64,000 bases of DNA, from the IMG/VR virus record IMGVR_UViG_3300009151_009555, one strand, 5' to 3'. The translations under genes were made by a program, and so were the position numbers. This stretch comes from a virus. Numbering within the stretch: position 1 is the stretch's first letter; every line of letters starts with the position of its first letter. This document shows, piece after piece, positions 1 to 63,453 of the stretch. The notes beneath the pieces were generated by a model. That model did no database searches, was not told where the DNA came from, and saw only the letters and a list, made by a program, of their open reading frames with translations.

Positions 1-297
1 TCATATTCCTATCTCTTTAAGTTTTTCTTCTCTTAGTATCTGTAGACATTCTGCCATTGGATACATTACGCCAATGGTATGAGACCACGACGTATTGGCT
101 TCATTGCTGTAGTCTCCATCCCATTTTCTGGGAAATCGTATCTCTATTCTAGATCCGACACCGTGAGGACCTTCCGCTATCTTATGAACGGTTCCTTCCA
201 CACCGATGAATTGTAACATTCCCTCCTCCCATCCAACCCGTGCTGAGTTGTCTTTGTCGAACTGGAACCCTTTTAATTTTTGACCTTTCTTTATCAT
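1..297 (-). CDS. hypothetical small protein with the C-terminal ...EEKLKEIGI tag; stop codon may lie beyond the window edge
   Basis: ORF 1..330 on the minus strand. The internal ATG at 297 overlaps the stop of the upstream gene (AAATATGA). The C-terminus carries the family motif KLKEIGI. Confidence 0.45.
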   Translation of the reverse strand: MIKKGQKLKGFQFDKDNSARVGWEEGMLQFIGVEGTVHKIAEGPHGVGSRIEIRFPRKWDGDYSNEANTSWSHTIGVMYPMAECLQILREEKLKEIGI

Positions 298-557
298 ATT
301 TCTTTGAGTTCTTCTTCTCTGGCATACCACTGGTCGCCTTCTTCGTCTGTGAAGTAGTAGATGTAACAGCTACCCTTCATTCCGCATTTGTCAATGGTTA
401 TGACCTTACCATCCATTTCTGCCTTATCTCCTTTATAGAATAGCGGCATGCTTATCCAATCAGGGAAAAGGTCAAGTACTTGTTGTGCCTTTGCTTTGTC
501 TCCGATTATCTCTTTTAATTTTCTCTCGAATCCTGATAAGTTGTCTAGTTCTTTCAT
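294..557 (-). CDS. hypothetical protein, 87 aa
   Basis: ORF track. It ends ...EEELKEI with ATATGA coupling to the next gene. Confidence 0.45.
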   Translation of the reverse strand: MKELDNLSGFERKLKEIIGDKAKAQQVLDLFPDWISMPLFYKGDKAEMDGKVITIDKCGMKGSCYIYYFTDEEGDQWYAREEELKEI

Positions 558-618
558 AGCTGCAATATACGGATAATATTCGATTATATTCCTATTTTAT
601 CTCCTACTTTAATATCTT

Positions 619-831
619 TCATATTCCTATTTCATTAAGTTGTCGTTCTCTCCATTCTTCGAGAGTTATGAATCTAGATTCTTTATATGTGTGTTGTTTA
701 CCAAAGTCGTTTATAATTTTTATACCACCAAATTCCCGATTGACTACATCATAACTGATACCATATCTTATTCCTTCCTGTGGTCTTCCTTTCCCCATCC
801 AATAAAAAGGTTCTATACAAACTACTTTCAT
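619..831 (-). CDS. hypothetical protein with C-terminal RERQLNEIGI tag
   Basis: ORF 619..870. The start was moved to the ATG at 831, which sits 4 nt after the stop of 836..1285. Confidence 0.45.
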   Translation of the reverse strand: MKVVCIEPFYWMGKGRPQEGIRYGISYDVVNREFGGIKIINDFGKQHTYKESRFITLEEWRERQLNEIGI

Positions 832-835
832 AGTC

Positions 836-1285
836 TTATTTCTTTGTAAGTTCTGTTGAATCGAAGCCAACGTTCTCAGCCACGCCTACTTTGTTTAATA
901 CCGTGATGTAAGTGTATTTTCCTTTTTGACTTCTTACATCGTAAGTCCCTGGGTACTTCTTCGCAAACGTACCTGATTTGAATACGACCTTATCTCCTGC
1001 AACGAATACCTCTGCGATAACTGGCTTATCCCAGCCTGGTACTAACTGATCTAATAACACTGGGTTTAATAAGTCATTCATCGCCTCACCAAAACTTTTA
1101 GTCTTACCAGCTGTTTGAACGTATCTGTCTAAGGCAGTGAAGGCACCAGGCATCTTAGCTAACTGACCACTGGCTTTGGCACCACTATATGAAGTTGTGA
1201 AGTTTCCAGTAGGTAGTTTCAAAGTAATGTAGTTGTGTTGAACATTAAGTTTCGGTGCTGCTATTTTCTTTGTCTTAGTTGCCAT
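836..1285 (-). CDS. hypothetical protein, 149 aa
   Basis: ORF track. No motif recognised. Confidence 0.5.
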   Translation of the reverse strand: MATKTKKIAAPKLNVQHNYITLKLPTGNFTTSYSGAKASGQLAKMPGAFTALDRYVQTAGKTKSFGEAMNDLLNPVLLDQLVPGWDKPVIAEVFVAGDKVVFKSGTFAKKYPGTYDVRSQKGKYTYITVLNKVGVAENVGFDSTELTKK

Positions 1286-1458: not shown

Positions 1459-1629
1459 ATGGAAGAAGCAATGAGTGAAAGACCATCTTACGCATGGGAG
1501 AACAAACAATACTTATTAGAAGTATTTATGAACAAATTAGGAATCACTACAGAGGATCTTGAAAATGATCCAAGCTGGATGAAAGCTAAGATTAGAGAGT
1601 TCAATATCGATACGATATTAGAAAACTAA
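1459..1629 (+). CDS. possible small protein of 56 aa (MEEAMSERPSYAWENKQYLLEVFMNKLGITTEDLENDPSWMKAKIREFNIDTILEN)
   Basis: Read by eye; below the 60-aa cutoff of the ORF track. A hairpin plus T-run follows at about 1636..1668. Confidence 0.3.
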   Translation: MEEAMSERPSYAWENKQYLLEVFMNKLGITTEDLENDPSWMKAKIREFNIDTILEN

Positions 1630-9252: not shown

Positions 9253-9504
9253 TTAGTCCAATATCTTCATCAACTGAAATTCTCTTTCTAACTGTTTAGA
9301 TGATGGTAATGTAGGTTTGTTATTGAACTGATACTTACTATCAATGTCGACTCCACGATGGTCACAGTTCCATGTCATTGACTTTCTGACCCATTCTTTT
9401 TCTTTGAAGTCGTATTCGAGTTTTTCTCTTCGGTGTATGGTATACCCGTTGACTACAACAATATGATGTGTTGTTTTTACTTCTTCTTGTTTCTTGAATA
9501 TCAT
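9253..9504 (-). CDS. hypothetical protein, 83 aa
   Basis: ORF track. Confidence 0.45.
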   Translation of the reverse strand: MIFKKQEEVKTTHHIVVVNGYTIHRREKLEYDFKEKEWVRKSMTWNCDHRGVDIDSKYQFNNKPTLPSSKQLEREFQLMKILD

Positions 9505-10640: not shown

Positions 10641-10862
10641 TTATATTCCAATATCATTCAATCTAGCTTCTCTCCAATCTTGTTCATGCATGAAATGATT
10701 TGAATCGAATACGAACTTCAAACCATCTGAGTTTATAACATATTGATATCTATAATCATACTCATAAAAATAACCTTTCTTGAACAAAACATAGTCTACT
10801 GACTCGTTGAGTCCATATCGGTCGTTCTTGTTGTACTTTGTTTTTATGCAATAAACTTTCAT
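10641..10862 (-). CDS. C-terminal-tag family protein (...REARLNDIGI)
   Basis: ORF track. Confidence 0.5.
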   Translation of the reverse strand: MKVYCIKTKYNKNDRYGLNESVDYVLFKKGYFYEYDYRYQYVINSDGLKFVFDSNHFMHEQDWREARLNDIGI

Positions 10863-11116
10863 TCTATTCCTAATTGTGTAAGACTTATCTCTCTAAGCTC
10901 CGGTGCGAAATACTTTTTGAGTATGTCGTTGTCATCGAAGGAAATGAATCCGTGAGTTACTTCAACTCTATTCAGAGGATCTGGATTGCCGTCGCTATAT
11001 GTAAGGTGCCAACAGCTTTCGCCGGTAATATCTATTCGCCAGAGACCATATTTATACCGATTATTGAAGATCTCTTTGAATCCTATCTTCTCTATTTTTT
11101 CTATGAAGTCTTTCAT
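10859..11116 (-). CDS. C-terminal-tag family protein (...ISLTQLGIE)
   Basis: ORF 10859..11239 trimmed to the ATG at 11116, which overlaps the upstream stop (GGAATAGAATGA). Confidence 0.45.
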   Translation of the reverse strand: MKDFIEKIEKIGFKEIFNNRYKYGLWRIDITGESCWHLTYSDGNPDPLNRVEVTHGFISFDDNDILKKYFAPELREISLTQLGIE

Positions 11117-11403
11117 TCTATTCCAAGTGATTCTATTCTCATGTTTCTCAATACTGACTTCAGCATTGGTGTTATGTGTTTGGCATAAGTTGTATCTATA
11201 GAAGAGTATTCTTCTGATACAAAGTCCAGTACATAACATCCAGAACCATCAGTGCTTGAAAAAATTGCTACTCTGGTTCTTGCTATAACTTCTTTAGGAA
11301 TACCTATACCTCTCTCTACCTTTATCTGGTCGAGTTCGTCGTACAGCTTGGATTCTTTTAATGATCCATCCGTATTGTATGATATGTATAGGTACCCTTC
11401 CAT
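11113..11403 (-). CDS. C-terminal-tag family protein (...RIESLGIE)
   Basis: ORF track. Confidence 0.45.
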   Translation of the reverse strand: MEGYLYISYNTDGSLKESKLYDELDQIKVERGIGIPKEVIARTRVAIFSSTDGSGCYVLDFVSEEYSSIDTTYAKHITPMLKSVLRNMRIESLGIE

Positions 11404-13392: not shown

Positions 13393-13982
13393 AACATATA
13401 AAGACATACAAGATTTTCGAGTCGGTTGAGTTGATAGATCGAGATGACATGGAAGAAATACTTCTTCCTCTAAAGGATATAGGAGTGGAATATGAAATCG
13501 GAGGAGAGCAGATTTTAGGAAAGGATTTTGTTTCTTTCGAGATAAGCAAATTCAAAGTAAGAGCATTGACTGTCCCTGATTTTACCAATATTACTAATAT
13601 GGTTGTCAATAGGGGTGAGATTTATATGGCTTCGTTTGATCCAAGACGAAACACTTATATGATTCTGAATCATGATGGTGGGAATGCACAAGAGTTTGTT
13701 CATGCGTCTCATTTAGAGATTATCGGATACAAATGGAAAGACTTACGTGACGAGGTTCTTCACCTTGTTTCTTTTATGCTTGATGAAGGTTACTTCTTTT
13801 TCTACAACAACAGTATAAAGATATCCGAAGTTGTAAACCCTAAGGGAAAGGGTTTGACATGGATGGAAGAAGATGTTTTAAACAAGACTGCTGGAAAGGG
13901 AATAGAGATGCTTGAGTCTTTGAGTCCTGAGGCTAGTATAGCGGAACTAAGGATTTCTTTTGCAAAGAAGCTAAATTCCTAA
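13389..13982 (+). CDS. MK-N-terminal family protein (MKHIKTYKIFES); tandem paralog of the preceding gene
   Basis: ORF track. ATGA overlap with the preceding gene and an identical 12-residue N-terminus. Confidence 0.55.
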   Translation: MKHIKTYKIFESVELIDRDDMEEILLPLKDIGVEYEIGGEQILGKDFVSFEISKFKVRALTVPDFTNITNMVVNRGEIYMASFDPRRNTYMILNHDGGNAQEFVHASHLEIIGYKWKDLRDEVLHLVSFMLDEGYFFFYNNSIKISEVVNPKGKGLTWMEEDVLNKTAGKGIEMLESLSPEASIAELRISFAKKLNS

Positions 13983-14432
13983 CTTTTTTAGTTTTCTATC
14001 TCTTATTTCTTGTATATCAGATATTTCACCAATCTCTTTGATTGCTTTCTTGTTTAACCACTTTGTTATCAAACATCCTTTGAATAATCCTATATAGTTG
14101 TTGCTTAGATATGAAATATTCAGACCGTAAGGAACTCCCTTTCTCTCACTTAAAGTCATTTCTTTCTCGTTCCATATATCCAATCCATATTCACGACCTT
14201 CTATATCTATGACATATCTATCTATACATGGCTGTTTTCCTTTATCGACTGCCTTTACTTTTACCTTACCTTTCTTTAGTAGTCTATGTAGACGCCATCT
14301 GTTCTTCCAGTATTTTGGTTCTCCCCAATATTCGTAGAATACCCACATACTTGCTGCGAATAACGGGAATAAGGTTATCATTATAACAATCGATAAAATA
14401 CTTTTTGAGTTGTCGTCGGTGAAGTGTGTCAT
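13971..14432 (-). CDS. C-terminal-tag family protein (...RKLKKLGI) with N-terminal transmembrane segment
   Basis: ORF track. Confidence 0.5.
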   Translation of the reverse strand: MTHFTDDNSKSILSIVIMITLFPLFAASMWVFYEYWGEPKYWKNRWRLHRLLKKGKVKVKAVDKGKQPCIDRYVIDIEGREYGLDIWNEKEMTLSERKGVPYGLNISYLSNNYIGLFKGCLITKWLNKKAIKEIGEISDIQEIRDRKLKKLGI

Positions 14433-15734: not shown

Positions 15735-16313
15735 TTATTCCAAAATTTGATTTAGTTTATCCTCTCTCTTCTCGCTTCTAAGTTTGTACTTTGGAAGCAT
15801 CGTTATGTCCTTTATGCTGTAGATGCTGAAACGACTTGTTTGATATCTTTCTTTGGTGATAAGCCTCCCGAATATGGTGTAGACGTAGACGTCGTCTTCT
15901 ATCTCGCACTTTACGAAGTTTTTTGTGGCTTCGTCGAAGACCTCGTCGAAGTCCCATCTGCCTTCGTCCACGCACATCGTTACTATTGTAACTATAGTGA
16001 GTATGATGAACCCGATCCAAAGTCCCGCGTTCCCTCCGGCGTATTCCTTCCATCTGTAGATGTTCTTGTCCTTGCCCACGAGCGTTCCTCTTTTTCGCTG
16101 ACTATACGCTTCAATGCCATCGGAAGAATCGTACAGGTAGACCCATTCGCCGCCTATTTGCATTTCTTTGAGAATGACTCTTTCGTGCGTCTGGTCTGGT
16201 ATCGTTCCTGCGTAGGCGAAAAGTATACTGGTTATCACGATCATTATCGTCTTTACTATGTTGATTCTTATTAGTTCGAATAGGTATACGAACGGGAATA
16301 GTATTGCTTTCAT
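15735..16313 (-). CDS. membrane protein; paralog of 37495..38103
   Basis: Shares the N-terminal pattern MK..F..Y.F.L.R.N.VKTI and an internal TM plus acidic segment (DFDEVFDEATKNFVKCEIEDDVYVY versus FDFEKVFQATVSYYITCELEEGIYYY). Confidence 0.5.
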   Translation of the reverse strand: MKAILFPFVYLFELIRINIVKTIMIVITSILFAYAGTIPDQTHERVILKEMQIGGEWVYLYDSSDGIEAYSQRKRGTLVGKDKNIYRWKEYAGGNAGLWIGFIILTIVTIVTMCVDEGRWDFDEVFDEATKNFVKCEIEDDVYVYTIFGRLITKERYQTSRFSIYSIKDITMLPKYKLRSEKREDKLNQILE

Positions 16314-16564
16314 ATGAGTATTTTTTCTAGCTGTTTGTTTCTAAATTCTTCCAATGTGATGAATATCTTTGAGTTCTTTTTGGAGAAGGTTCCTTTATCG
16401 GTCTTTATATTGTATAGAGTCACGGGACAGCTCAGTTCGGAAGACCAGAAGCTTTCTTCTTCTTCAACATGGTATGTCTTATAGAGAGTAATGTCATCGG
16501 TGCACGTGTCGTGTCCTATCTTCGTGTTTACAAATACTACTTTCATATTAGAACTTGCTTGCAT
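16310..16564 (-). CDS. hypothetical protein (ends ...RNKQLEKILI, a degenerate C-terminal tag)
   Basis: ORF track. Confidence 0.45.
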   Translation of the reverse strand: MQASSNMKVVFVNTKIGHDTCTDDITLYKTYHVEEEESFWSSELSCPVTLYNIKTDKGTFSKKNSKIFITLEEFRNKQLEKILI

Positions 16565-16886: not shown

Positions 16887-17173
16887 CTTTTTTTGTCGGT
16901 TATGAGCCTTTCGTCGTAGTCGTAAAGTCCCATTATGGTTTTGCAGTGTACGCTGTCGATTTCAACAGAGTCTTTTTCGAAGTAAAGCAGACCGTTTCCT
17001 TTTCGATAGTTTAGTTTAATAGTGTCTTTGTCAACGACGGCGACCATTGTGAATGCCGTGTCCGAAATTGTTTTTAGTTGGTGGTTCCTGAATAGGCTTA
17101 TGACCTGTGCTTTGTAAAACACTGGCTGCTTTGCGCACGACATCAGTATCGATAAAAGTATCAAATATTTCAT
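16850..17173 (-). CDS. putative lipoprotein or secreted protein
   Basis: N-terminus MKYLILLSILMSCAKQ, with a Cys after a hydrophobic segment. Confidence 0.45.
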   Translation of the reverse strand: MKYLILLSILMSCAKQPVFYKAQVISLFRNHQLKTISDTAFTMVAVVDKDTIKLNYRKGNGLLYFEKDSVEIDSVHCKTIMGLYDYDERLITDKKRWYVQIANKSNL

Positions 17174-17427
17174 AGTCCTAGTTCGTTTAGTTTCTCTTCT
17201 CTCCTTACTGAAGTAGCAGATTCGGATAGTTCCAATTCGAGAACTTCTATTTCCTTTTTAGCTTCAGCTATCCTCAGTTGACACAGACTATCTTCTAGTC
17301 CACCACCATATGCTCTATCTATATCTTCGTAGTGCCAAAAATTTTTGACATATGACTTCAGAAAAGAAAGTTCTTTTTTCTTTTCTCTTCTTTCTTGTCC
17401 GCTTATTCTGAATGGGCTTTCGTTCAT
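17170..17427 (-). CDS. C-terminal-tag family protein (...REEKLNELGL)
   Basis: ORF track. Confidence 0.45.
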   Translation of the reverse strand: MNESPFRISGQERREKKKELSFLKSYVKNFWHYEDIDRAYGGGLEDSLCQLRIAEAKKEIEVLELELSESATSVRREEKLNELGL

Positions 17428-19533: not shown

Positions 19534-20241
19534 ATGATAAAGAAGTATAAAGATTTTTCAATTAACGAAGCGAAGGCTACCGAAGACGAAGAATATGACG
19601 TAAGACAGATATTGGCGGAACTTACACAGGATCTGGGATTCGAATTAGAACTAAGTAAAATTTATTATTCTGATAATAAAACACAATGGCATGAGAATTT
19701 CGACACACTTTGCCAAAATCCTGTTTTAAGAATACATCTTACCAAAAAGAACGAGCGTCTTGAAGAATCTACGATAGAAAAATTGCTTCCTTCAGTGCAT
19801 GAATGTGTGGATAGACTATCCGAGCTAGGAGAAGCAGAACTTATGAAGTTTTCTTTGGCAAGACCATATGTTACCAACAATACACTTGTCGATATTTTGA
19901 TAATGGTGACGATTGACGAAAAACCGGAGATTTCCGACCTGCCAGGGTTCTACGACTTTATAGATACTTTGAACAGAAGCTGGAGAAGCTTGAACAACAA
20001 AGTGACAAGATCATTCTCTATTGGAGAAAAAAACAAAGAGTCTGTTGTTCTGGAAAGGGAAGAGCATGGTGTTGCGACGTTTACAGAAGTTAAAGCATTG
20101 ATTAGAAAGATTTTCAATCCGTGGCCAAACAGAACTGGAAGAGAGTACGAATATGAGTTTCAAAAAGAAGGAGACAATGTAAGAATAAAATACAAAGGCT
20201 ACAAAAGATTGGACCGTATGGGTAGAGTAGTAGTTGATTAA
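19534..20241 (+). CDS. hypothetical protein, 235 aa (MIKKYKDF..., a weak family N-terminus)
   Basis: ORF track. TTTAATATATACTCT sits at the ATG. Confidence 0.5.
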   Translation: MIKKYKDFSINEAKATEDEEYDVRQILAELTQDLGFELELSKIYYSDNKTQWHENFDTLCQNPVLRIHLTKKNERLEESTIEKLLPSVHECVDRLSELGEAELMKFSLARPYVTNNTLVDILIMVTIDEKPEISDLPGFYDFIDTLNRSWRSLNNKVTRSFSIGEKNKESVVLEREEHGVATFTEVKALIRKIFNPWPNRTGREYEYEFQKEGDNVRIKYKGYKRLDRMGRVVVD

Positions 20242-42899: not shown

Positions 42900-42910
42900 C
42901 AACAAAATAT

Positions 42911-42998: not shown

Positions 42999-43038
42999 CA
43001 AACCGAATAGAGACAAGTGCTCATTTAATATATATTAA

Positions 43039-43785
43039 ATGAAACCTTGGGATGAAAATGAATTAAGTTTGGCAATATCTATGATAGAGTCAAAAAAAAC
43101 TTATAAAGAGATAAGTGAAAAATTAAATAGAAGCGAAAGAAGTATTAGAGAAAAACTGAGAAGAAATGGATATAAATATTTTGATTTTATAGATATTTAT
43201 GAAGATTTAAAATGTATAGAGTGTGATAAAATATTTACAGATAAAAAAATAAATAATAGAAAATTCTGCACAAGATCTTGCTCGGTTAAATTTAATAATA
43301 AATTTAAAATAAAAAATGGAAATTATGCAGTTAAAAATTCAATTGAAAAGGATTGTAAATTCTGTAATAAAAAATTAGTAAATAAAGAAAGAGTTAAAAC
43401 GTTTTGTAATAAAAAGTGTCAAAAAAATTATGAAAGGAAAATAATTTATGAAAAAATAGAAAAAGGAACATATGAATATAAAAATTCTAGAAAATATAAA
43501 GATTATTTAATTGATAAATATGGTAATAAATGTATGAAATGTGAATGGTGTGAGATTAATGAAGTAACAGGTAAAGTTCCAATTCAATTAGAACATAAAG
43601 ATGGTAATTCAAATAATAACAATCTTAATAATTTAGAGTTACTTTGTCCTAATTGTCATTCTTTAACTAGCACATATGGTTACCTAAACAAGGGTAATGG
43701 TAGGGATGAACGAAAAAAATATAGAGATTATATAAAAAATCTAACATTAGATGAATTGATTGAAATGAAAATAAAAATTGGATAG
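43039..43785 (+). mobile_element. HNH homing-endonuclease gene (N-terminal HTH-like region plus C-terminal HNH motif) inserted within the tRNA cluster
   Basis: The protein has IQLEHKDGNSNNNNLNNLELLCPNCHS (HNH motif) and several C-x2-C pairs. It is extremely AT-rich even for this genome and is flanked by tRNAs on both sides. Confidence 0.75.
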
Positions 43786-43847
43786 AATATAAAAAGACTT
43801 GAGTTTCAAAGTACACGAAACAACGAAGGTTAGTCTTCCTTCAATTT

Positions 43848-43921
43848 GGGGCTATGGTGACAACTGGCTAACACACCGCACTTGCAATGCGGAGATGGGG
43901 TATCGTACACCCCTAGCTCCA
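43848..43921 (+). tRNA. probable tRNA-Ala (TGC) with G3-U70 and an atypical T-loop (ATCGTAC)
   Basis: Acceptor GGGGCTA/TAGCTCC with a G3-T70 wobble, anticodon arm CCGCA-CTTGCAA-TGCGG, T-stem GGGGT/ACCCC. The T-loop has A54/T58 instead of T54/A58. Confidence 0.55.
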
Positions 43922-43947
43922 CAAAATTAAAAAAAATAAAAAGCAAT

Positions 43948-44241
43948 ATGAAAAAAGAATTTGATGAGAGTAAAGAAATTTTACTTAAAACATTAAATAA
44001 ATTACCAAAAGTAGATGGATATTTAGGTTATCTAGTTAATAAACATAATAATAATGTTGTATCTTTGTTTGAAGATAAAGAAGATACTATTATGTATCAT
44101 CAGTTAATGTTGTTGGTTATTGAAAAATATGAGTTTGATTGTGGTAATTATACAACTAATGGGATGACATATAAATTAAATAAAGATTGGGATGAAATAG
44201 TGATAGAATATGGTGGTTCATTATTACTACCATTTTTATAA
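43948..44241 (+). CDS. hypothetical protein, 97 aa (MKKEFDESKEILLK...)
   Basis: ORF 43882..44241 trimmed so it does not run through the tRNA. Its start lies inside a 29-nt cassette AAAAAAAATAAAAAGCAATATGAAAAAA that is repeated at 44243. Confidence 0.4.
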   Translation: MKKEFDESKEILLKTLNKLPKVDGYLGYLVNKHNNNVVSLFEDKEDTIMYHQLMLLVIEKYEFDCGNYTTNGMTYKLNKDWDEIVIEYGGSLLLPFL

Positions 44242-44262
44242 ATAAAAAAAATAAAAAGCAAT

Positions 44263-44406
44263 ATGAAAAAAAGTAAAGAAGTATTAACAGGAAGTTTTGA
44301 ATCATCAAAAGAAAAAATGAGAAGAGATACAAATGATCATGTATTTAAGTTTATAACAAAGATGATAAAACGAAAAGGGAAAAAAAAATTAAAAACTAAT
44401 GTATAA
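44263..44406 (+). CDS. possible small basic protein, 47 aa
   Basis: Starts in the second copy of the 29-nt cassette. Below the ORF-track cutoff. Confidence 0.25.
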   Translation: MKKSKEVLTGSFESSKEKMRRDTNDHVFKFITKMIKRKGKKKLKTNV

Positions 44407-44674
44407 ATTAACTAATGGTATGTGGATTCAAATTGTATTTTGTAAACCACCTAAAGAAACAGAAGAAGAAAAAATTGTTTTAGAATACACCGAAATGTTA
44501 AACTTATCAAAAGGTTGGTCAGTTATTACAGCTTATAAAGTAGAAAGTGAAAATTTCCCAACTGATAAGTGGGGTGTTGTTTTATTACGTGATGATAAAG
44601 AAATGGCTGAACATCATTTAAAACTTGCTGAGAAATCTAAACAATGTTTTGAGTTGATGAAATTGCGAGAATAG
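44399..44674 (+). CDS. hypothetical protein, 91 aa
   Basis: ORF track. Its stop overlaps the first 10 nt of tRNA-Gly. Confidence 0.4.
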   Translation: MYKLTNGMWIQIVFCKPPKETEEEKIVLEYTEMLNLSKGWSVITAYKVESENFPTDKWGVVLLRDDKEMAEHHLKLAEKSKQCFELMKLRE

Positions 44675-44736
44675 CTCAGTGGTAGAGCATCTGGTTGCCA
44701 ATCAGAAGGTCGCGGGTTCAAGCCCCGTTTCTCGCT
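44665..44736 (+). tRNA. tRNA-Gly (GCC)
   Basis: GCGAGAA/TTCTCGC acceptor, D-arm GCTCAGTGGTAGAGC, loop TTGCCAA, T-arm GCGGG-TTCAAGC-CCCGT, discriminator U. Confidence 0.9.
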
Positions 44737-44740
44737 CAAA

Positions 44741-44814
44741 GGGGAATTAGCTCAGTTGGCTAGAGCGCTTGCCTGGCAGGCAAGAGGTGACCGGTTCAAT
44801 CCCGGTATTCTCCA
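44741..44814 (+). tRNA. tRNA-Ala (GGC) with G3-U70
   Basis: GGGGAAT/ATTCTCC acceptor with a G3-T70 wobble, D-arm GCTCAGTTGGCTAGAGC, anticodon arm CTTGC-CTGGCAG-GCAAG, T-arm ACCGG-TTCAATC-CCGGT. Confidence 0.9.
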
Positions 44815-44891
44815 CAAAATATTAGGTGGCTTAGAAAACCTTCCTTATATTTGTATAAGTAATAACAACTATCATTTTTCTTTGTCAAAAG

Positions 44892-45413
44892 GTGGAGAAA
44901 AAATTTCAAAGAAATTTGAAAAAAAAAGAAAAATGTAGTATGAAAACAAACAAAGACCAATTTGGTGACCGTATGAAAATGTTCGCTCTGAAAGGAATCA
45001 AAAAAGAAACTAAAAAAATAATTATGAAATTAAATGAAATTTTATCCTCAAGTGAGGAATTGACAAGAGTTTACTCAACAAATAATTACGATCTATTTGG
45101 ATTTATTGATGGTAATAGAAATGTAAATAACTCAAATCTTAAAAAGATTAAAGAGTCTATGAGTAAAAAACATTTTATATCTAAGACTATGAAATTTGAT
45201 AATGAATTAATTAAGGATTTTATTATTGAGAAAGATCCTACCGTAAAAAGAAAAAATATCATTTTTGAAAATGTTTATATTTCAGGAGAATTAATAATGG
45301 CTCCTTACAGAGAACTTATTTGGTCTAATAAATTTAGTGTTAAGTTAGAAGACTACGAACTTAGACTAAAAGAAAAGTCGAGAGATAATAAACTTAATGA
45401 ATTGGGAATATAG
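44892..45413 (+). CDS. plus-strand member of the C-terminal-tag family (...RDNKLNELGI); start uncertain (alternative ATG at 44940)
   Basis: ORF track. Followed by the terminator GAGGTTT-T-AAACCTC plus T8 at 45414..45442. Confidence 0.45.
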   Translation: MEKKFQRNLKKKEKCSMKTNKDQFGDRMKMFALKGIKKETKKIIMKLNEILSSSEELTRVYSTNNYDLFGFIDGNRNVNNSNLKKIKESMSKKHFISKTMKFDNELIKDFIIEKDPTVKRKNIIFENVYISGELIMAPYRELIWSNKFSVKLEDYELRLKEKSRDNKLNELGI

Positions 45414-48118: not shown

Positions 48119-51100
48119 ATGATACTTATTCAACAGATTTCAAATCTAGATTTAGAATATATTGATGATATAAAAGAATGCCTAAGACATAATGTTTTAA
48201 ACCCTATAATAGACACAATTGTAATTTTTTCAAATTGTAAGAATTTTGAAAGTAGTATAAAAATAGATTCCAGAAAAATAAAGTATTTTGAAGTTGAAAT
48301 TGACCTTTTCGAGATGATGAAATATGGTAAGAAAAACTCTAAAAATTTCATAATATATAGCTCACCATTTTTAAAGTTTGGTATTGATTTAAAGAAGGTG
48401 ATGACTTTCGACATGGAAAATGTTTTAAAAGAGGAAAATTGTTACTACATCTTCGATAAACGATTGGATATTAAAAATAAAAGAAATATAGAGGATATTT
48501 TAGATGGTCAAAAGCTACCAAATAGTTTGAATCTACAAAAGATGGGCTATTACACAAAAGGATTTCAATATAATTCTTACGATTGGAAAGTTTCAAGAAC
48601 ATATAAAGAGAAGAAGGTTGAATTAATATCTGAGAAGTTTGAATTACCTAAAATACCTAATAAAGTTGAACAAAAAATAATTGATATAATACCATCAAAA
48701 AGAGTTGGTATTAAAAAATTAGATGTGGTTATTGTATCTGTGAACTATAATGATTTTTTGATAGTTTCTTTAGAGAACAATATAGATATTTTTGAAAATA
48801 TAACAGTTGTTACTTCATCTAGTGACTTTCTATGTCAAAAGATATGTGAGAAGTTTGGGGTAAAATGTATTGTTACTGATGTGATGTATGAGAATAATGC
48901 AGTTTTCAATAAAGGTAAAGCTATAAATGAGGGAATAAGGTCTATTATGGATCCAGACTACATTCTTTTACTAGATGCGGATATTGTTGTTATGAATAAA
49001 ATAGATTTAGATACTTTAGAAGATAACTTTTTATATACATCCGAAAGATATATTGTTCCAAACTATGATTCGTATAAAAGATATATTTATGGTGATAATG
49101 AAAAATTCCGAGTTGATCCAGATAATGGTTTAGGATTTTTTCAATTGTTTAATTATTCCAAAGGAATAAAATATTCAGAACTTTTTGATAATGCTGCAGT
49201 TTCTGATATTAAATTTAGAGACAAATTCAAAGAAAAAAGAAATATTGGTAAAAGGGTATTACACTTAGGTACTGATTCTAATTGGGATGGTAGAAAATCA
49301 AAAATATTTTTGAATTATAATGAATTTATATTTCTTTTAGAAAAAAAACCATTTGATATAAATTCATATTTTGATAAAATCTATTGTCTTAATTTAGATA
49401 GAAGAGTTGATAGGTGGGAGATAGTGGATCACATGTTCAAAAAAAACAACATAAATGTAGAACGATTTTCTGCCATAGATGGAGAAAAGATATCGGATCT
49501 GGAATTTTCGGACACTGGCTTAGACGAGGATCAATGTAGTAATAAAGGTCTGATAGAAAACAAAAATTCGCTGGCTTGTCTTTTAAGCCATCTTGAGATA
49601 ATAAAAGAAGCTAAACTAAACAATTATAAAAGAATATTGATATTTGAAGATGATGTTGTATTTTCCAAATCATTTAAGAAAGATATATCGAAAATAGAAT
49701 CATATAATTGGAAGCTTTTGTATTTAGGGGCAAGTCAGTTTGACTGGGAAAATATTGAAATAAGCAACAATCATTATAAATGCAGAAAGACATTGGGAAC
49801 ATTCGCGTATGCGATTGATTCCAGTATCTATGACGATATAATTGGTGTGCTTTCGAAAAGAGAGAAATCGATTGACAACATACTTTCGGATATACAAAAA
49901 AAATACAAAAGGAGTTCGTTTGTTGCTTACCCAAACATAGTAATTTCTGATGTTTCCGATTCTGATATAAGAAAATCAAAAGACAAAATCGATTATGCAA
50001 AAATAGTAAGGTGGGACATGAGTAATTTTGAATTTACGAAGATTTTAAAAAAGGTCAGTATTGTCATACCATGCTACAATCAGTCGGAATTTTTAATCGA
50101 ATGTATAGATAGTTGCTTGTCACAAACCGTTTTACCAGATTCTATATTGGTTCTGTTGATGGATAAGAAATCAATCTCGATGAAGCAACTTTTGAAATCC
50201 AAATCCAAAAAAATAAAATGTTTTATATCGAATAGAAGATATTTGTCGAATGCCAGGAACTATCTAATAGACAAAGTAGATACCGAATACTTCATACCAC
50301 TTGATGCCGATGATAAGATACCATCGAACTTTATCGAGGAAATATCATTGATAGATGCTGATGTCGTCTATGTAGGATCCAAATATTTTGGAGGTGTTTC
50401 TGGATGCTGGCCAAATCCAATAACAGAAGAAATCAATTGGTCAAAGCTAACGACTTTTAGAAGAAATTCATTGGTCTGCACTGCTTTGATAAAAAAAGAT
50501 TCGTTTATGAAATCTGGAAGGTACAGTGATAATCTCTGGGCGTTCGAAGACATGGATCTCTGGATAAAGATGTACAAGAACGGCATGGATTTCAAGAAAT
50601 GTAATGGGACTTTCTTAAGCTATAGAAAGTATTTGTCTCAAAATTCTCTACTATCTAAGACAAACTCGGATTCGAAAAACACAGAAATTCTTAAAAAGGA
50701 AATAATGAAGGATAGTTTCTATTCAAAGACCCCTAAGATAATACACTGGGTTTGGCTTGGGAAACGGCCGGTTCCTCAGGAAGTAATCGATACATGGTAT
50801 AGAAATCTTCCAGATTCTGAATGGCGTTATATGATGTGGAATGAAGAAAACTTCGATATGGAATCATGTGATTTTTTGAAGAAGGCCTATTCACTGAAAA
50901 AATATGGAATATGTGTCGACTATATCAGAGCAAAGGTGTTACATGATTTTGGTGGAATATGGCTAGATGCAGATTGTGTCATAAACTGTGATATATCACC
51001 ATTTTTGCAATGGGACTTTTTCGCCAGCTGGGAAAATGAGAGCTACCTAAACATAGGATTGATAGGGTGTAGCCCAAATCTTGTCGCGATGAAGAATATA

Positions 51101-51433
51101 CTTGACTATTATACAGATATAAAAGTTTCGGAAAATGTATTGGTTTCAAACCATTCTTTTGTTAAAGAGATAGGGACCGGGCCTATGGTTCTGACTAGAG
51201 AGATTTTGAAGATAGAAGATATCATGAATGGTGGATTTTCGAATAGCTTCGAGAAGGATGGTAAGAGATACCTTATCGAGACACCGGACGTATTTGTTTT
51301 AGATGATTCGGAAAATGGTCATATCAATTACGCGGTGCATCTGTTTGATGGATCTTGGACGGATAAGAAAGAAGAATGGTCGGTCGTTGTGAGAAATTCC
51401 TACGATTCGTGGAAAATAAAGAACAGAATATGA
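48119..51433 (+). CDS. 1104-aa multi-domain glycosyltransferase (GT-A/DxD domain, GT25-like, GT2, GT32-like)
   Basis: Domain 1: VVIVSVNYND...LLLDADIVV. Domain 2: YCLNLDRRVDRWEIV...FSAIDG...LIFEDD (GT25/Lic2B-like). Domain 3: VSIVIPCYNQSEFLIECIDSCLSQT...LDADDKI (GT2). Domain 4: IIHWVWLGKRPVP...DYIRAKVLHDFGGIWLDADCV (GT32/Och1-like). Confidence 0.85.
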   Translation: MILIQQISNLDLEYIDDIKECLRHNVLNPIIDTIVIFSNCKNFESSIKIDSRKIKYFEVEIDLFEMMKYGKKNSKNFIIYSSPFLKFGIDLKKVMTFDMENVLKEENCYYIFDKRLDIKNKRNIEDILDGQKLPNSLNLQKMGYYTKGFQYNSYDWKVSRTYKEKKVELISEKFELPKIPNKVEQKIIDIIPSKRVGIKKLDVVIVSVNYNDFLIVSLENNIDIFENITVVTSSSDFLCQKICEKFGVKCIVTDVMYENNAVFNKGKAINEGIRSIMDPDYILLLDADIVVMNKIDLDTLEDNFLYTSERYIVPNYDSYKRYIYGDNEKFRVDPDNGLGFFQLFNYSKGIKYSELFDNAAVSDIKFRDKFKEKRNIGKRVLHLGTDSNWDGRKSKIFLNYNEFIFLLEKKPFDINSYFDKIYCLNLDRRVDRWEIVDHMFKKNNINVERFSAIDGEKISDLEFSDTGLDEDQCSNKGLIENKNSLACLLSHLEIIKEAKLNNYKRILIFEDDVVFSKSFKKDISKIESYNWKLLYLGASQFDWENIEISNNHYKCRKTLGTFAYAIDSSIYDDIIGVLSKREKSIDNILSDIQKKYKRSSFVAYPNIVISDVSDSDIRKSKDKIDYAKIVRWDMSNFEFTKILKKVSIVIPCYNQSEFLIECIDSCLSQTVLPDSILVLLMDKKSISMKQLLKSKSKKIKCFISNRRYLSNARNYLIDKVDTEYFIPLDADDKIPSNFIEEISLIDADVVYVGSKYFGGVSGCWPNPITEEINWSKLTTFRRNSLVCTALIKKDSFMKSGRYSDNLWAFEDMDLWIKMYKNGMDFKKCNGTFLSYRKYLSQNSLLSKTNSDSKNTEILKKEIMKDSFYSKTPKIIHWVWLGKRPVPQEVIDTWYRNLPDSEWRYMMWNEENFDMESCDFLKKAYSLKKYGICVDYIRAKVLHDFGGIWLDADCVINCDISPFLQWDFFASWENESYLNIGLIGCSPNLVAMKNILDYYTDIKVSENVLVSNHSFVKEIGTGPMVLTREILKIEDIMNGGFSNSFEKDGKRYLIETPDVFVLDDSENGHINYAVHLFDGSWTDKKEEWSVVVRNSYDSWKIKNRI

Positions 51434-54746: not shown

Positions 54747-54977
54747 ATGGGTAAATATATTGTTGGGTTTGGTAGTGAAATGACCGATATGCCTTTGTCT
54801 TTTTTTGAAGGACTTAGTATATTAAGGGAAGAACTTGTCGGAGATACTTATTTCATAAAGTTTGAAAACGGTGATTCTGATATGACTTTCTGTATACATC
54901 AAAATGAATACAAGCGTGTAAAGATTGATTTGAGAGATAAGAAGATACAAAATATTATAAACAAAAAAGAGAGCTAA
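54747..54977 (+). CDS. hypothetical protein, 76 aa
   Basis: ORF track. Followed by the terminator AGAGAGC-TAAT-GCTCTCT plus T8 at 54963..54993. Confidence 0.45.
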   Translation: MGKYIVGFGSEMTDMPLSFFEGLSILREELVGDTYFIKFENGDSDMTFCIHQNEYKRVKIDLRDKKIQNIINKKES

Positions 54978-55154: not shown

Positions 55155-55586
55155 TTATTTAAGTGTTTCGTTTATTCGTTGTTCTCTGAATGATTGCATG
55201 TCCATATTTGTTTCTTTAAACTCAAAAAATGTTAAATTGACCATCTTATCATATTGTTGAGCTTCTTCTTTACTCGCCTTAGGATGTAAGACATTTTCAT
55301 AGGATGACCAGATATCTTTCTTCTCAATCATACCATATTTCTCAACAAGTTTTTTGTTGAAGTCTTCATATGTATCGATATCAACTGTCAAAATTTCTTC
55401 CATATCGTATGAGTAGTTTGCGATGTTTTCGGTCTTGAACTCTTCTATGTTCAGATCCTCGACTTTTTTTATGGCATCTTCTTTCGAGAAGACTATGGTA
55501 TCCGGTGTTCCACCGCCACCATCAAACTCCGAATATATGTTGTCGTCGTATTCGAATCCTTTTCTTAAAATAACATATGCTTTCAT
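55155..55586 (-). CDS. hypothetical acidic protein, 143 aa
   Basis: ORF track. Confidence 0.45.
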   Translation of the reverse strand: MKAYVILRKGFEYDDNIYSEFDGGGGTPDTIVFSKEDAIKKVEDLNIEEFKTENIANYSYDMEEILTVDIDTYEDFNKKLVEKYGMIEKKDIWSSYENVLHPKASKEEAQQYDKMVNLTFFEFKETNMDMQSFREQRINETLK

Positions 55587-56041
55587 ATTCCTAATTGATT
55601 TAATTTTATACTTCTTTTTTTCTTTTCGTCCATAAGTATCTCTACTTCATGTCTTTTAAGCCAAGACCCGGTCATGAAGTTTAGTATGGCTTGTTTGTTT
55701 GCTGGATCTTTGGCGTAGCTGTCGTGTGATCTATAGTCGATTGCTTTTACCTTTACACTATCCACGGATACTTCCAAAATCTCTACTTCGTATGTAACAG
55801 TGAACGGAATAGGTTTTTCATCGTCGCTGCCTTTAGTTGATAGTCCGTATCCTGGAACAATCGCGTTGTCTCCTGGTTCTATCTCAACAAGTTCTTGTGC
55901 GTCTTCTTTGGTTTTGTTTAGATCCAATTTTGCTTTGTCTAACTCTTTGTTCAGTTCTATCACTTTGGTAAATAAAATCATAGCAAATACGATAGATATT
56001 AAAGTAAGAGATGCTAAAACAAGCATTATTATATTAGTCAT
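55583..56041 (-). CDS. membrane-anchored C-terminal-tag family protein (...KRSIKLNQLGI)
   Basis: ORF track. N-terminal TM helix. Confidence 0.5.
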   Translation of the reverse strand: MTNIIMLVLASLTLISIVFAMILFTKVIELNKELDKAKLDLNKTKEDAQELVEIEPGDNAIVPGYGLSTKGSDDEKPIPFTVTYEVEILEVSVDSVKVKAIDYRSHDSYAKDPANKQAILNFMTGSWLKRHEVEILMDEKKKRSIKLNQLGI

Positions 56042-56453
56042 TTCCTAAAAGTTTTGTAAGGTTTGCGTTTCTGTTTATAATATTGTCTCCACCAACAAGC
56101 TTTTTGATATGATCGACTGAATATTTGTATGATGTTCCGTTTGGTGCTTGTGCAATGACCGGGTATTTTCTATTCTTTGTTTTGATGTCTGTGATGATCA
56201 TCTCTCCCATGTTTGCATTAAACGACAAGCCGATTACGTTTTGAGTAAATCCTAATCTACGGCATATACCTTCATAGATAGAATCTACTTTCTCGCTTTT
56301 TTCGGTAGTCGAAACTTTCATTGTCGCTGAATAGTATGCACTGTTGTATTTTATGGATCCAAAAGATATGGATACACCTTCTTCTTTTTCGATTTGAGCA
56401 ATTGCTGCTTGTATCTTCGCTTGTACTTTGTTTATCTTAGTATCTGTTATCAT
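56034..56453 (-). CDS. hypothetical protein
   Basis: ORF 56034..56480 trimmed to the ATG at 56453 (MITDTKINKV). Confidence 0.4.
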   Translation of the reverse strand: MITDTKINKVQAKIQAAIAQIEKEEGVSISFGSIKYNSAYYSATMKVSTTEKSEKVDSIYEGICRRLGFTQNVIGLSFNANMGEMIITDIKTKNRKYPVIAQAPNGTSYKYSVDHIKKLVGGDNIINRNANLTKLLGND

Positions 56454-58339: not shown

Positions 58340-58774
58340 TTAGATACCCAAATTTTTTAGAGATTTTTCTCTTTTAAATGATTTAATTTTTGCTTGGTCC
58401 ATTGTTTCTTCTTGTCTTCTACAAACTTCCACTATGTCGTTTTTTAATATTCTTCCCAGCCAGTCTATATGTACAAAGGTATAGATTCTCTTTTCATCTA
58501 TCTCACTATCGAGATGTTGAATCATAGTATATCCTTTATTGTGTTTATATTTTCTGATTGATCCAAAGTCGTATATCTTTGTCTTGTTGATCCAACCAAC
58601 CGGTATCGTCTTCCTGAACCGCGGAAGGTATATCAGATATATTATGATACTATGTAGAAAAGAGATACCCTTCCATTTTATGGAAATAGCCTCTAATATA
58701 ATGTATAGAATAAATAGACATCCGGCTATTCCTAGCGAGATTATTATAGTTCCGTCTTTGAGTATTTCTATCAT
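58340..58774 (-). CDS. membrane C-terminal-tag family protein (...EKSLKNLGI)
   Basis: ORF track. Confidence 0.5.
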   Translation of the reverse strand: MIEILKDGTIIISLGIAGCLFILYIILEAISIKWKGISFLHSIIIYLIYLPRFRKTIPVGWINKTKIYDFGSIRKYKHNKGYTMIQHLDSEIDEKRIYTFVHIDWLGRILKNDIVEVCRRQEETMDQAKIKSFKREKSLKNLGI

Positions 58775-61785: not shown

Positions 61786-61814
61786 ATTTTAAATTTTAGA
61801 TTTATTCAACAAAT

Positions 61815-61831
61815 ATAAGGAACTTATTTTA
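61815..61831 (-). promoter_or_regulatory. class-B box GTTCCTTATATTTGTTG upstream of the 702-aa gene
   Basis: Motif instance. Confidence 0.45.
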
Positions 61832-61888
61832 ATAAAAAAGAAAATACACTAAAAAAGCGGATTTAATTTCATGTAACATCATGATATA

Positions 61889-63124
61889 CTATATACTTAT
61901 ATTTACTTTGTCGTAAATTTTTACTCTGGCCATAAGTTCTGTTCCTAACTTTTCAACAATACCAACTACTAATGCATTACCCATAAAAAACGCTCTTTTT
62001 GTCGGTGTGACACCTTCTATGTAAGTATGATTGTCAGGAAACATATTTAATCTTTCAAGTTCTAAAGGTGTTAGTCTTCTATGTGTGTCTCCTACTTTAA
62101 TAACATGTTTGAATCTCGACGCGGATTTCCCACCCTCACCAGTTATGATTGTTCTTGAAGGTTTGTCGATTGGATCTGGAAAAGTCATTCCACCTTCTGA
62201 ATAAAAATATTCAAATCCATCTGCAGTAGTTCTTTTCTCTTTTTTCGCACCTTTCAGGTATTCCCATTTTGTTAAATCATCTACAAAGAATTCTTTTTCG
62301 ATTTTTCCAGATTCTAAAATATCTCCTAATACTGTTCTTGGTCCACTATAATCAGCAGCTACTTTCTTAGTCATTACCATACCATCTATCATCACTCCAG
62401 AGTTTTCAAAAGGAGATGTTTTCTTTCCTTTGTTGAAGTCAGAAGATACAGAAAGAATATCTCCTTTTATGTTGAAATGAAGAAACCTTTCTTCGTTTTT
62501 GATTGTAGGAAAAGATCTTGTTGATATTCCATTATCAATAAGCCAAGCCGCTTGATTTTCTTTTATTGTTTCGTAGATGTCAGTTCCTTTTAAGAATCCC
62601 ATTATGAAAACTCTTTTCCTTCTTTGAGGCATTCCATAGTCCGCAGCATTGATTACTCTCCACTCTACAGCATAACCAAGTTCTTCTAAGCTTTTTAGAA
62701 TGACCGCAAAGTCTCTGCCCCTTTGTGCTGTTGGTGATTTCAATATTCTATCTACGTTCTCTAAAAGAATGTATTTAGGTTTTACTTCTTTATCTCTAAG
62801 AATTTTGTGTATTGACCACCAAAGAACTCCTTTCTTTCCAATAAGTCCTTTTGAGTTTTGTGATGTACTTGCTACAGAATAATCTTGACATGGAAATCCA
62901 CCAACTAATAAATCAAAGTCTGGCATCTTACTTACATCAACATCATTCACATCTATGTTTGTGTGTCCATCAGATCCAAATCTTGCTTCATAAACTTCAG
63001 AAGCCCATTGTTTTTTTGTACTTGGTTCCCATTGATTACTGAATACCACTTCATATCCACCAGCTCTTTCAAGTCCTACTCTGAATCCACCAACACCTGC
63101 AAAAAGTTCTGCTACTCTTATCAT
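61889..63124 (-). CDS. dcm: DNA (cytosine-5)-methyltransferase, second copy
   Basis: Motif I LFAGVGGFRVG, motif IV GGFPCQDYS, motif VI LLENVDRIL. Confidence 0.9.
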   Translation of the reverse strand: MIRVAELFAGVGGFRVGLERAGGYEVVFSNQWEPSTKKQWASEVYEARFGSDGHTNIDVNDVDVSKMPDFDLLVGGFPCQDYSVASTSQNSKGLIGKKGVLWWSIHKILRDKEVKPKYILLENVDRILKSPTAQRGRDFAVILKSLEELGYAVEWRVINAADYGMPQRRKRVFIMGFLKGTDIYETIKENQAAWLIDNGISTRSFPTIKNEERFLHFNIKGDILSVSSDFNKGKKTSPFENSGVMIDGMVMTKKVAADYSGPRTVLGDILESGKIEKEFFVDDLTKWEYLKGAKKEKRTTADGFEYFYSEGGMTFPDPIDKPSRTIITGEGGKSASRFKHVIKVGDTHRRLTPLELERLNMFPDNHTYIEGVTPTKRAFFMGNALVVGIVEKLGTELMARVKIYDKVNISI

Positions 63125-63453
63125 ATTCCTAATTTCTCTAGTTTTTTATCTCTTCTCCATTGTTCATCTGGTCGAACTGTTCCTGGATGAAGAGTTGTCG
63201 TATAGTTTTTGTTGTCTGTTATGTTTAACCTCCACCCATACGCATACTTTATATATCCAGACACTACGTAGTTGCCGTAGTATTCTGTTGCACCTTTACT
63301 TGTTTTCTCACATGTCATTCCTATAGGATACCATCTTTTGAGTATCTCTTCCTGTATGTTGTGTGTTGTATGATTGAATCTATAAAGTTCTTCTTGTGTA
63401 TTCTTACCTTCATATTCCCAATACGTCATTGCTTTCTTTCCGTATGTACTCAT
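63121..63453 (-). CDS. C-terminal-tag family protein (...RDKKLEKLGI)
   Basis: ORF track. Confidence 0.5.
   Translation of the reverse strand: MSTYGKKAMTYWEYEGKNTQEELYRFNHTTHNIQEEILKRWYPIGMTCEKTSKGATEYYGNYVVSGYIKYAYGWRLNITDNKNYTTTLHPGTVRPDEQWRRDKKLEKLGI

Follow-up and report, generated by a model that had tools for sequence, protein, structure and literature searches.

A 64,000-nucleotide stretch of viral DNA, IMG/VR virus record IMGVR_UViG_3300009151_009555 (the whole stretch is here called the window), was found to contain 28 open reading frames (ORFs) ending in one short C-terminal motif, the tag, with the core R-[DE]-x-[KQR]-[LI]-x-x-[LI]-G-[IL]. The tag is a motif selected as a peptide, neither a DNA repeat nor an artefact of overlapping genes. 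We favour, at about even probability, the reading that the tag, as a modular C-terminal helix, docks its bearers onto a single cytoplasmic partner that all of them share.

The ends of the ORFs were searched with the strict pattern R-x-x-[KRQ]-[LIMV]-x-x-[LIMV]-G-[ILVM] followed by 0-2 residues, which alone returned 21-24 window ORFs; the chance expectation, from the amino-acid composition of the window proteins, was 0.006 matches among 624 ORFs. The total of 28 adds the LGIE, LGIN, LGID, LGL and IGV forms, S or N at position −7 and one-residue extensions, and also takes in two ORFs outside the greedy gene calls (11113-11403 and 23280-23531) and a remnant at 33909. The figure of about 28 proteins given in the original prediction, an earlier reading of the letters, was reached with these relaxed endings included, and the tag was present at every one of the six coordinates it quoted (25305, 26050, 35372, 31329, 63121 and 44892/44940 on the plus strand). 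The called window proteins held no internal copy of the strict pattern. The tagged proteins are 70-202 amino acids long, apart from one of 702, and tags occurred on 23 of 87 minus-strand genes versus 1 of 35 plus-strand genes (p = 0.002). The tagged ORFs are listed here with their endings and stops.

1-297, minus strand: REEKLKEIGI, ATATGA at the window edge
619-831, minus strand: 70 amino acids, SH3-like family; RERQLNEIGI, ATATGA
10641-10862, minus strand: SH3-like family; REARLNDIGI, TAA
10859-11116, minus strand: REISLTQLGIE, ATGA overlap; the start is probably the ATG overlapping the stop of 11113-11403 (longest ORF to 11239)
11113-11403, minus strand: RNMRIESLGIE, ATGA overlap
13971-14432, minus strand: N-terminal membrane anchor; RDRKLKKLGI, TAG, convergent end, no downstream gene
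17170-17427, minus strand: REEKLNELGL, ATGA overlap
20238-20477, minus strand: RDRKLREIGI, TAA, convergent end
20474-20749, minus strand: RSVNLSELGI, ATGA overlap; LR756502 ortholog ends RIVNLEELGI
20713-20925, minus strand: SH3-like family; REIQLKKIGI, ATATGA
23280-23531, minus strand: REEKLTKLGL, ATGA overlap
25305-25520, minus strand: SH3-like family; REEKLNELGI, ATGA overlap
25517-26053, minus strand: REVSLNQIGI, ATGA overlap
26050-26304, minus strand: Lar-like zinc ribbon; REDKLNELGI at residues 75-84, ATGA overlap
26492-26809, minus strand: RETKLKSLGI, ATGA overlap; TATATTTG promoter box at 26821
31329-31574, minus strand: REKKLKSIGI, TAG
33909-33941, minus strand: tag remnant or very short ORF in an intergenic gap; RDYKLSQLGL, TAG
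34176-34577, minus strand: RGKKLNDLGI, TAA
34574-34792, minus strand: RDDKLKELGL, ATGA overlap; LR756502 ortholog ends RDDKLKDLGI
34805-35164, minus strand: REKKISDLGI, TAA
35372-35710, minus strand: RERKLNNLGI, ATGA overlap
37274-37498, minus strand: degenerate tag; RRDSILKYLGID, TAG, convergent end
37495-38103, minus strand: two membrane segments; RVSKLEEIGV, ATGA overlap
44940-45413, plus strand: the sole plus-strand tagged ORF; RDNKLNELGI, TAG; TATATTTG box at 44846
55583-56041, minus strand: N-terminal membrane anchor; RSIKLNQLGI, ATGA overlap
58340-58774, minus strand: membrane-anchored; REKSLKNLGI, TAA
59677-61785, minus strand: 702 amino acids; RDKKITSLGIN, TAA, convergent end; LR756502 ortholog ends RDGKISTILDENKK
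63121-63453, minus strand: RDKKLEKLGI, ATGA overlap

Selection on the peptide was evident from a codon comparison of tag and body in 23 independent pairs of homologous tagged genes. The tag codons were identical in 129 cases and differed synonymously in 51 and non-synonymously in 49; the corresponding numbers for the bodies were 741, 366 and 789. Among codons that kept their residue, the synonymous share was 51/180 (28%) in the tags versus 366/1107 (33%) in the bodies, and non-synonymous change in the tag ran at about half the body rate. The tags used AGA, AGG, CGT, CGA and CGC for arginine, five or six codons for leucine and all of GGA, GGT, GGG and GGC for glycine. Tags that do not overlap a following gene had ATA, ATT or ATC as their last isoleucine codon and TAA or TAG as stop, and the motif was maintained in genomes spanning 22-43% guanine plus cytosine (GC). 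Because synonymous change proceeds at the body rate, amino-acid change is halved, the last codon and stop are free where there is no overlap, and the motif persists over this range of GC content, the tag is to be regarded as peptide-selected. The synonymous variation and protein-level constraint that had been proposed from the letters are thereby borne out and quantified. The same proposal had named masking of the ATATGA nucleotides as a check, and the tag was equally conserved where that overlap is lacking, which refutes a coupling artefact.

The anatomy of the motif was taken from 199 distinct tags, in which the invariance of R(−10) and G(−2) is built in, as both were required by the search pattern. 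Position −9 was D, E or N in 89% of tags, −7 was K in 78% (155/199) and otherwise R or Q (Q in 13/199), −6 was L in 93%, −3 was L or I, and −1 was I in 87%, although the seed pattern used for IMG/VR fixed E at −4 and isoleucine at −1 and thereby biases the logo at both. Position −11 was usually hydrophobic, and −8, −5 and −4 were variable. In an alignment of 36 tagged or variant window proteins, selected with R as a requirement, R was the sole invariant residue besides the initiator methionine; R(−10) was also invariant in the alignment of the SH3-like family described below and nearly so among orthologs of the Lar-like protein. The preference for D, E or N at −9 depended on the genome across unrelated proteins (p = 4e-7). 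The terminal position was strict for most tags: the window and related loci yielded 181 distinct copies of the core, of which 160 ended exactly at the C-terminus, 16 had one residue extra and 5 lay elsewhere.

In AlphaFold2 models the tag was part of a terminal helix, after which came a short coil; this was helix 71-81 in the Lar-like protein 26050-26304 (predicted local distance difference test, pLDDT, 74-80) and helix 57-67 in the 70-residue protein 619-831 (pLDDT about 90). The models suggest a short amphipathic helix from about −14 to −3, with a Gly-Ile cap at its end; h-x-x-h-G-h is the pattern of a Schellman-type C-cap. On a helical wheel, positions −11, −7, −3, −10 and −6 would span about 140 degrees, one face carrying all conserved residues and the opposite one the variable positions −9, −8, −5 and −4. 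An example of the 14-residue tag peptide is EEIREEKLNELGI. When a 20-column profile of the tag was compared with all PDB sequences, the sole match was a weak one (E = 0.12) to the zero-layer segment ERDQKLSEL of the synaptobrevin R-SNARE, probably by chance; in the R-SNARE, such a sequence can put an arginine inside the core of a helical bundle.

About 14 further window genes had a variant ending (such as ...ILE, ...ILL or ...LLNGE; examples are REDKLNQILE, RNKQLEKILI, RDRKLRAIL, RDSKIDWLLNGE and RDSKLDNLLEESI), so that tagged and variant genes together make up about 36-40 of the approximately 138 called genes, roughly a quarter. Orthologs shared by the window and the phage LR756502 at 25-66% identity kept the tag or a variant of it, and those in LR756502 also retained extended forms such as RDGKISTILDENKK or RDKKIETVLKPDTKL. 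The variants are as follows.

1459-1629, plus strand: REFNIDTILEN; ortholog REANIDKVLDK
9253-9504, minus strand: REFQLMKILD
15735-16313, minus strand: membrane protein, paralog of 37495-38103; REDKLNQILE
16310-16564, minus strand: SH3-like family; RNKQLEKILI
24165-24674, minus strand: RDRKLRAIL; ortholog RDMQINRLLR
29519-29869, minus strand: REMKLNQIIK
30768-31295, minus strand: RDSKIDWLLNGE; ortholog REDKLNKILG
32210-32557, minus strand: variant with extension, RDQKINEVLGENETEK; ortholog RDKKIETVLKPDTKL
35151-35375, minus strand: RNNKLKIIFDAER
54747-54977, plus strand: RDKKIQNIINKKES
55155-55586, minus strand: weak variant, REQRINETLK
56034-56453, minus strand: RNANLTKLLGND; ortholog RNANIERLIG
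63450-63869, minus strand: RDSKLDNLLEESI

The proteins that carry the tag have little else in common. With the tag removed, 36 window proteins contained a single similar pair by BLASTP, Pfam and PHROG scans of the 36 found no family in common, and 100 tagged proteins from other loci gave just two unrelated single Pfam hits. The 194 tagged proteins of the window and other loci fell into 134 BLAST clusters. The earlier statement that the bodies are unrelated therefore holds at this level, and some of them join one superfamily by profile: iteration with the tag removed drew 45 of 219 tagged proteins into one SH3-like family of about 70 residues. This family comprised 224 clusters in a collection of 5.8 billion proteins, all of them metagenomic and annotated as hypothetical protein, without a Pfam domain; its model (pLDDT 93) was an SH3-like barrel followed by the tag helix. 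Protein 26050-26304 matched the Lar restriction-alleviation family PF14354 (30.2 bits, gathering cut-off 28.6) with residues 2-70 on profile positions 2-58 of 58, so that the tag at 75-84 lies outside a domain that is complete before it, and the tag was kept in 26 of 28 Lar-like orthologs. The tag is thus modular, as had been predicted. N-terminal membrane segments were found in 5 of 37 tagged or variant proteins, and in at least 13971 and 58340 a run of basic residues follows the segment, which by the positive-inside rule points the C-terminus to the cytoplasm.

None of the Pfam-annotated enzymes of the window (two C5 methylases, glycosyltransferases, SIS and YqeY proteins) was tagged. The methylases are C5 cytosine DNA methyltransferases at 27931-28800 and 61889-63124, both on the minus strand, and the plus-strand gene 48119-51433 encodes a 1104-residue protein with three glycosyltransferase domains (GT25, GT2 and a DXD sugar-binding region). 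With the SIS, YqeY and SPFH/Band-7 domain proteins that the window also encodes, the gene set is accessory and anti-defence-like. Amid the tagged arrays, on the opposite strand, lies 35747-37273 (plus strand), a 508-residue protein without a Pfam or PHROG hit but with full-length conservation in LR756502 (35% identity). Its C-terminal approximately 100 residues contain about nine repeats that are CxxCxGxG-like, as in DnaJ zinc fingers.

The tag had been described as almost always forming an ATATGA stop/start overlap with the next gene, which was overstated. Seventeen of the 28 tags end ...A-TGA, the overlapping downstream gene being verified for 15 of the 17, and the other 11 have a TAA or TAG stop; four (13971, 20238, 37274 and 59677) abut a convergent gene and have no downstream gene to couple. 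The overlap was still enriched, in 12 of 24 strictly tagged versus 12 of 114 other window genes (odds ratio 8.5), and it was seen in 105 of 148 tags of other phage loci and 21 of 41 tags of LR756502. Overlaps also join untagged neighbours within these arrays, so the enrichment is in part a consequence of lying in tightly packed arrays. The overlap looks secondary: a terminal isoleucine codon ATA followed by TGA would supply a free ATG for the next gene in packed operons without Shine-Dalgarno sequences. The usual tag codons put an A at −3, −6, −12 and −13 of the overlapping start, positions at which A is a positive initiation determinant in Flavobacterium (PMC6847099). Codon choice tuned for the overlapping start was considered and dropped, as the use of GGA at Gly(−2) was the same with and without overlap (65% and 71%, against a background of 35%).

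The element TAnnTTTG is the −7 element of the primary sigma factor of Bacteroidetes (PMC6847099). It was present within 70 nucleotides of 13 of 59 window genes preceded by a gap, compared with 4% of random windows. Exact TATATTTG boxes were on the minus strand in 13 of 16 cases and mostly precede the minus-strand arrays in which the tags lie; for 10 minus-strand genes the box is 4-29 nucleotides upstream of the ATG, and the plus-strand box at 44846 lies 86 nucleotides upstream of the sole plus-strand tagged gene. The full two-box pattern with a −33 TTTG element was rare. The promoter boxes lie in intergenic gaps and not inside tags, and the promoter element that had been suggested within the tag was not supported. 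From these sequences the host would be a member of the Bacteroidota and the tagged genes would be read by its RNA polymerase, which makes them probably early genes. A second, strongly conserved motif, TTTAATATATAC(T), was located 3 or 20-25 nucleotides upstream of the ATG of untagged plus-strand genes, and none of the window genes directly behind it (AATATATAC/TTTAATATATAC) was tagged. It looks like a phage-specific promoter, perhaps middle or late, which at 3 nucleotides from the ATG would give leaderless mRNAs. The positions of both motifs are given below; one of the (C)CTTATATTTG boxes precedes the transfer RNA (tRNA) cluster.

6226, 8034, 11951, 21827, 24686, 26821, 33892, 35722, 39053, 52090, 56477, 58329 and 61817, minus strand: (C)CTTATATTTG boxes, fitting TAnnTTTG
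31822, 42172 and 44846, plus strand: (C)CTTATATTTG boxes, fitting TAnnTTTG
4981, 8009, 12381, 18407, 19523, 21846, 35736, 48088 and 57354, plus strand: TTTAATATATAC(T) motif
27129 and 46354, minus strand: TTTAATATATAC(T) motif

The window is part of a metagenomic contig of 69.8 kb, and its relatives were sought among phages and bacteria. LR756502 is a 642-kb uncultured phage from a French freshwater lake (PMC9723777). Homologs of 29 window proteins were found in it, and the whole record carried 41 tags, 38 of them within 0-75 kb and 575-642 kb, the ends of the record; LR745206 (635 kb) had 12 tags in 100 kb from its ends. A degenerate DNA pattern of the tag recovered 60 IMG/VR stretches with 1-13 tags each, on contigs of up to 483 kb, so that the tag is present in related genomes, the absence of which would have spoken against the original prediction. 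Of 62 tagged loci, 41 shared other proteins with the window or LR756502. The same DNA pattern gave 18 matches in 596 Gb of bacterial and archaeal genomes, only 4 of which were real C-terminal tags, and two of these were on small contigs, L072 (3.5 kb, 4 tags) and L075 (4.2 kb, 11 tags), that are almost certainly phage fragments mis-binned into bacterial metagenome-assembled genomes. L072 was binned as Acidimicrobiaceae; L075, binned as Cloacimonadota, is a tandem array of paralogs of about 75 residues ending in EEYRNKRLEEIGI. An origin in host proteins, or mimicry of them, was rejected on these numbers. The tag belongs to phages, not to hosts, and is characteristic of one broad clade of huge freshwater and environmental phages, among them LR756502 and LR745206.

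Tenacibaculum phage PTm1, a jumbo phage of Bacteroidota that is in culture, had no tags in its first 100 kb. A near-identity DNA search with 8 kb of the window gave no match among 50,697 phage records, and tblastn with one tagged protein found LR756502 only (E = 0.02); protein 26050-26304 was also encoded on contigs from JGI samples 3300027749 and 3300010885. The window carries eight tRNA genes at 42464-44815 on the plus strand (Glu, Tyr, Glu, Ile(tat), Gly(tcc), Ala(tgc), Gly(gcc) and Ala(ggc)) in nearly the same order as a cluster at 389161-391227 of LR756502, which has 46 tRNAs. ARAGORN detected no transfer-messenger RNA (tmRNA) in the window or in LR756502; as the tags are moreover encoded in each ORF, an origin of the tag from tmRNA was rejected.

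The docking helix is our favoured reading because the tag is selected as a peptide, is terminal, sits on unrelated and membrane-bound folds, is confined to one gene class and one clade, and has a genome-specific preference at −9. The tagged proteins would form about a quarter of the small accessory proteins produced from arrays behind Bacteroidota sigma-A-type promoters. The location of all conserved positions on one helix face (hydrophobic −11, R−10, K−7, L−6 and L/I−3) argues for a single binding surface, which would be offered to one shared partner, and as an address label the tag could deliver many unrelated effector bodies to a common receptor. The existence and identity of a single partner are inferred. 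As a preferred but conjectural sub-case, the tag might tether its proteins to an AAA+ unfoldase or protease or to its adaptor, because such machines read short C-terminal peptides on soluble and membrane proteins; the tagged proteins might be their common substrates, the tag being a degron for early proteins, or might serve as adaptors, like the SspB XB peptide or an F-box. In the widest form of the idea, which we consider possible but somewhat short of an even chance, these megaphages would run a dedicated addressing system in which one receptor, a phage protein or a Bacteroidota hub, reads a C-terminal zip code on at least 100 unrelated small effectors.

Several observations weigh against a docking helix. 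Besides GGA at Gly(−2), ATA was used for Ile(−1) in 76% of non-overlapping tags versus about 44%, and CTA for Leu(−6) in 12 of 22 window tags versus a background of 15%; this bias is independent of the overlap, and a modest nucleotide-level or shared-ancestry signal is thus left. Gly(−2) can be replaced by leucine and the end extended by up to 7 residues in conserved orthologs, so the free carboxylate is not strictly required. The confidently modelled helix of the SH3-like family may simply be part of the fold, and the shift at −9 could stem from paralogy within genomes instead of co-evolution with a receptor. The promoter motifs of LR756502 neither separate by region nor cluster with its tag-rich regions, and the argument from promoter class therefore rests on the window. 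A receptor was also sought among the window proteins conserved in LR756502, where only DUF7275, YqeY, a P-loop kinase and proteins without assignment were met with and none stands out.

Some of these points would suit a structural C-terminal capping helix without a shared partner, the final helix in a very rapidly evolving small-protein superfamily, kept by descent with occasional in-frame recombination and stabilising small folds or protecting C-termini. The inclusion of 45 of 219 tagged proteins in one superfamily even without the tag fits such a helix, as do its modelling at pLDDT 90, the alternation within one family of ...IGI with ...ILL, ...ILD and ...LLQDV, the conservation of extended variants in orthologs, and a GGA, ATA and CTA bias that suggests a common DNA ancestry of the tags. 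We nevertheless find it unlikely, given that the tag is appended to a Lar zinc ribbon, beyond the end of its Pfam model, occurs on membrane-anchored proteins and on a 702-residue protein, and is spread over 134 BLAST clusters; its most conserved arginine and lysine are also mid-face, which would be unusual for a buried packing surface on unrelated bodies. A translation-level element, in which the last 30 nucleotides or the nascent decapeptide would act in termination-reinitiation or in initiation of the next gene in a host without Shine-Dalgarno pairing, would account for the enriched ATGA overlap in the window, the other loci and LR756502, for a tag directly adjoining the stop codon, for the A residues at the Flavobacterium determinants (PMC6847099) and for the over-use of GGA and ATA. 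It is improbable: synonymous sites diverge equally fast in tag and bodies, overlap is missing from 11 of 28 window tags, including four at convergent ends, and from 20 of 41 LR756502 tags, the GGA bias is alike with and without it, untagged genes of the same arrays overlap too, and the 1-7 additional residues that orthologs accept ahead of the stop are incompatible with a constant spacing in the ribosome tunnel.

An assembly or packaging tag, also raised in the original prediction, would send small anti-defence proteins into the head for packaging or ejection. Five of 37 tagged proteins are anchored in the membrane, the tagged genes lie behind host-type promoters in accessory arrays and not in structural modules, and about a quarter of the genes of the region would need to be cargo, which makes this very doubtful, even though the tag is a C-terminal peptide of about 10 residues on unrelated bodies and one bearer is a Lar-like anti-restriction protein. 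The L-G-I element of the tag may also recall encapsulin cargo peptides, which would speak for packaging. Least credible of all, and close to negligible, is a DNA-level repeat (a recombination linker, mobile mini-element or promoter) merely read as protein. Its recurrence at gene junctions and some codon bias would agree with such a repeat; PeSL cassettes of T4-type phages are a similar junction repeat. The amino acids are nevertheless kept through free synonymous change (AGA/CGT; CTA/TTA/CTT/TTG; GGA/GGT), the motif holds at 22-43% GC, and promoter boxes lie in the gaps and not in the tags.

One 10-residue motif marks about a quarter of the window genes and recurs in the largest phage genomes known. 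Nearly all tagged proteins are hypothetical dark matter, and the shared handle therefore provides an experimental entry point: with a single peptide one could fish for the receptor and group more than 100 unknown protein families into one functional class. The tag is also a simple sequence marker for the phage clade and its early or accessory gene class, and a clean case for separating peptide selection from the constraints of overlapping genes. If there is an addressing system, through one switch the phage could recruit, localise or destroy all proteins of a temporal class, and captured genes could join the programme by in-frame recombination with an existing tag.

Searches of Pfam, PHROG and PDB gave no entry containing the motif, and full-text literature searches, including motif strings, gave no description of it, in agreement with the earlier impression that no such tag was on record in phages. 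The beta-clamp motif (QL[SD]LF; C-terminus QLVLGL in Pol IV) is likewise found at the extreme C-terminus, with an L-G-L/I end and a Q/K-L start. The tag does not follow its consensus (QL[SD]LF or QLxLxL), as [KQR]-L-x-x-[LI]-G-[IL] is one residue longer, and differs further in that Q at −7 is infrequent relative to K, there is no aromatic residue, and the tag is predicted to be helical, not extended. PeSL cassettes share with the tag a repeat at junctions of small early genes in hyperplastic regions, but are intergenic DNA elements (promoter and stem-loop), whereas the tag is conserved as a peptide with free synonymous change; nucleotide-level conservation of the PeSL type is not seen in it (51/180 synonymous in tags, 366/1107 in bodies). 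Encapsulin cargo-loading peptides and the T4 capsid targeting sequence are also short terminal tags on unrelated cargo, in HK97-fold capsid systems. Their cargo is soluble and co-expressed with the shell, unlike the tagged proteins, of which 5 of 37 have membrane anchors and whose genes form accessory arrays preceded by TATATTTG boxes; the T4 sequence lies at the N-terminus and is removed by cleavage, and the encapsulin motif differs from that of the tag.

The PRANC or F-box-like motif on poxvirus ankyrin proteins resembles the tag in that variable viral bodies present a constant short C-terminal helix to one hub. Its bearers are proteins of a eukaryotic virus, the domain is longer and the partner, Skp1, is known, so that the analogy is one of logic only. 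The ssrA tag and the C-terminal XB peptide of SspB, both of the ClpXP system, are like the phage tag peptides of about 10-11 residues at the C-terminus of many unrelated proteins, with one cytoplasmic reader, a conserved upstream part and a non-polar extreme end. The ssrA tag is added from tmRNA while the phage tag is encoded in each gene, and the latter has no sequence resemblance to ...YALAA (ssrA) or LRVVK. Tagging by tmRNA, encapsulin cargo and secretion signals all provide examples of short terminal address peptides on unrelated proteins, and we know of none comparable for a bacteriophage early proteome; the tag is apparently an undescribed member of this kind, a shared terminal address peptide in a new setting.

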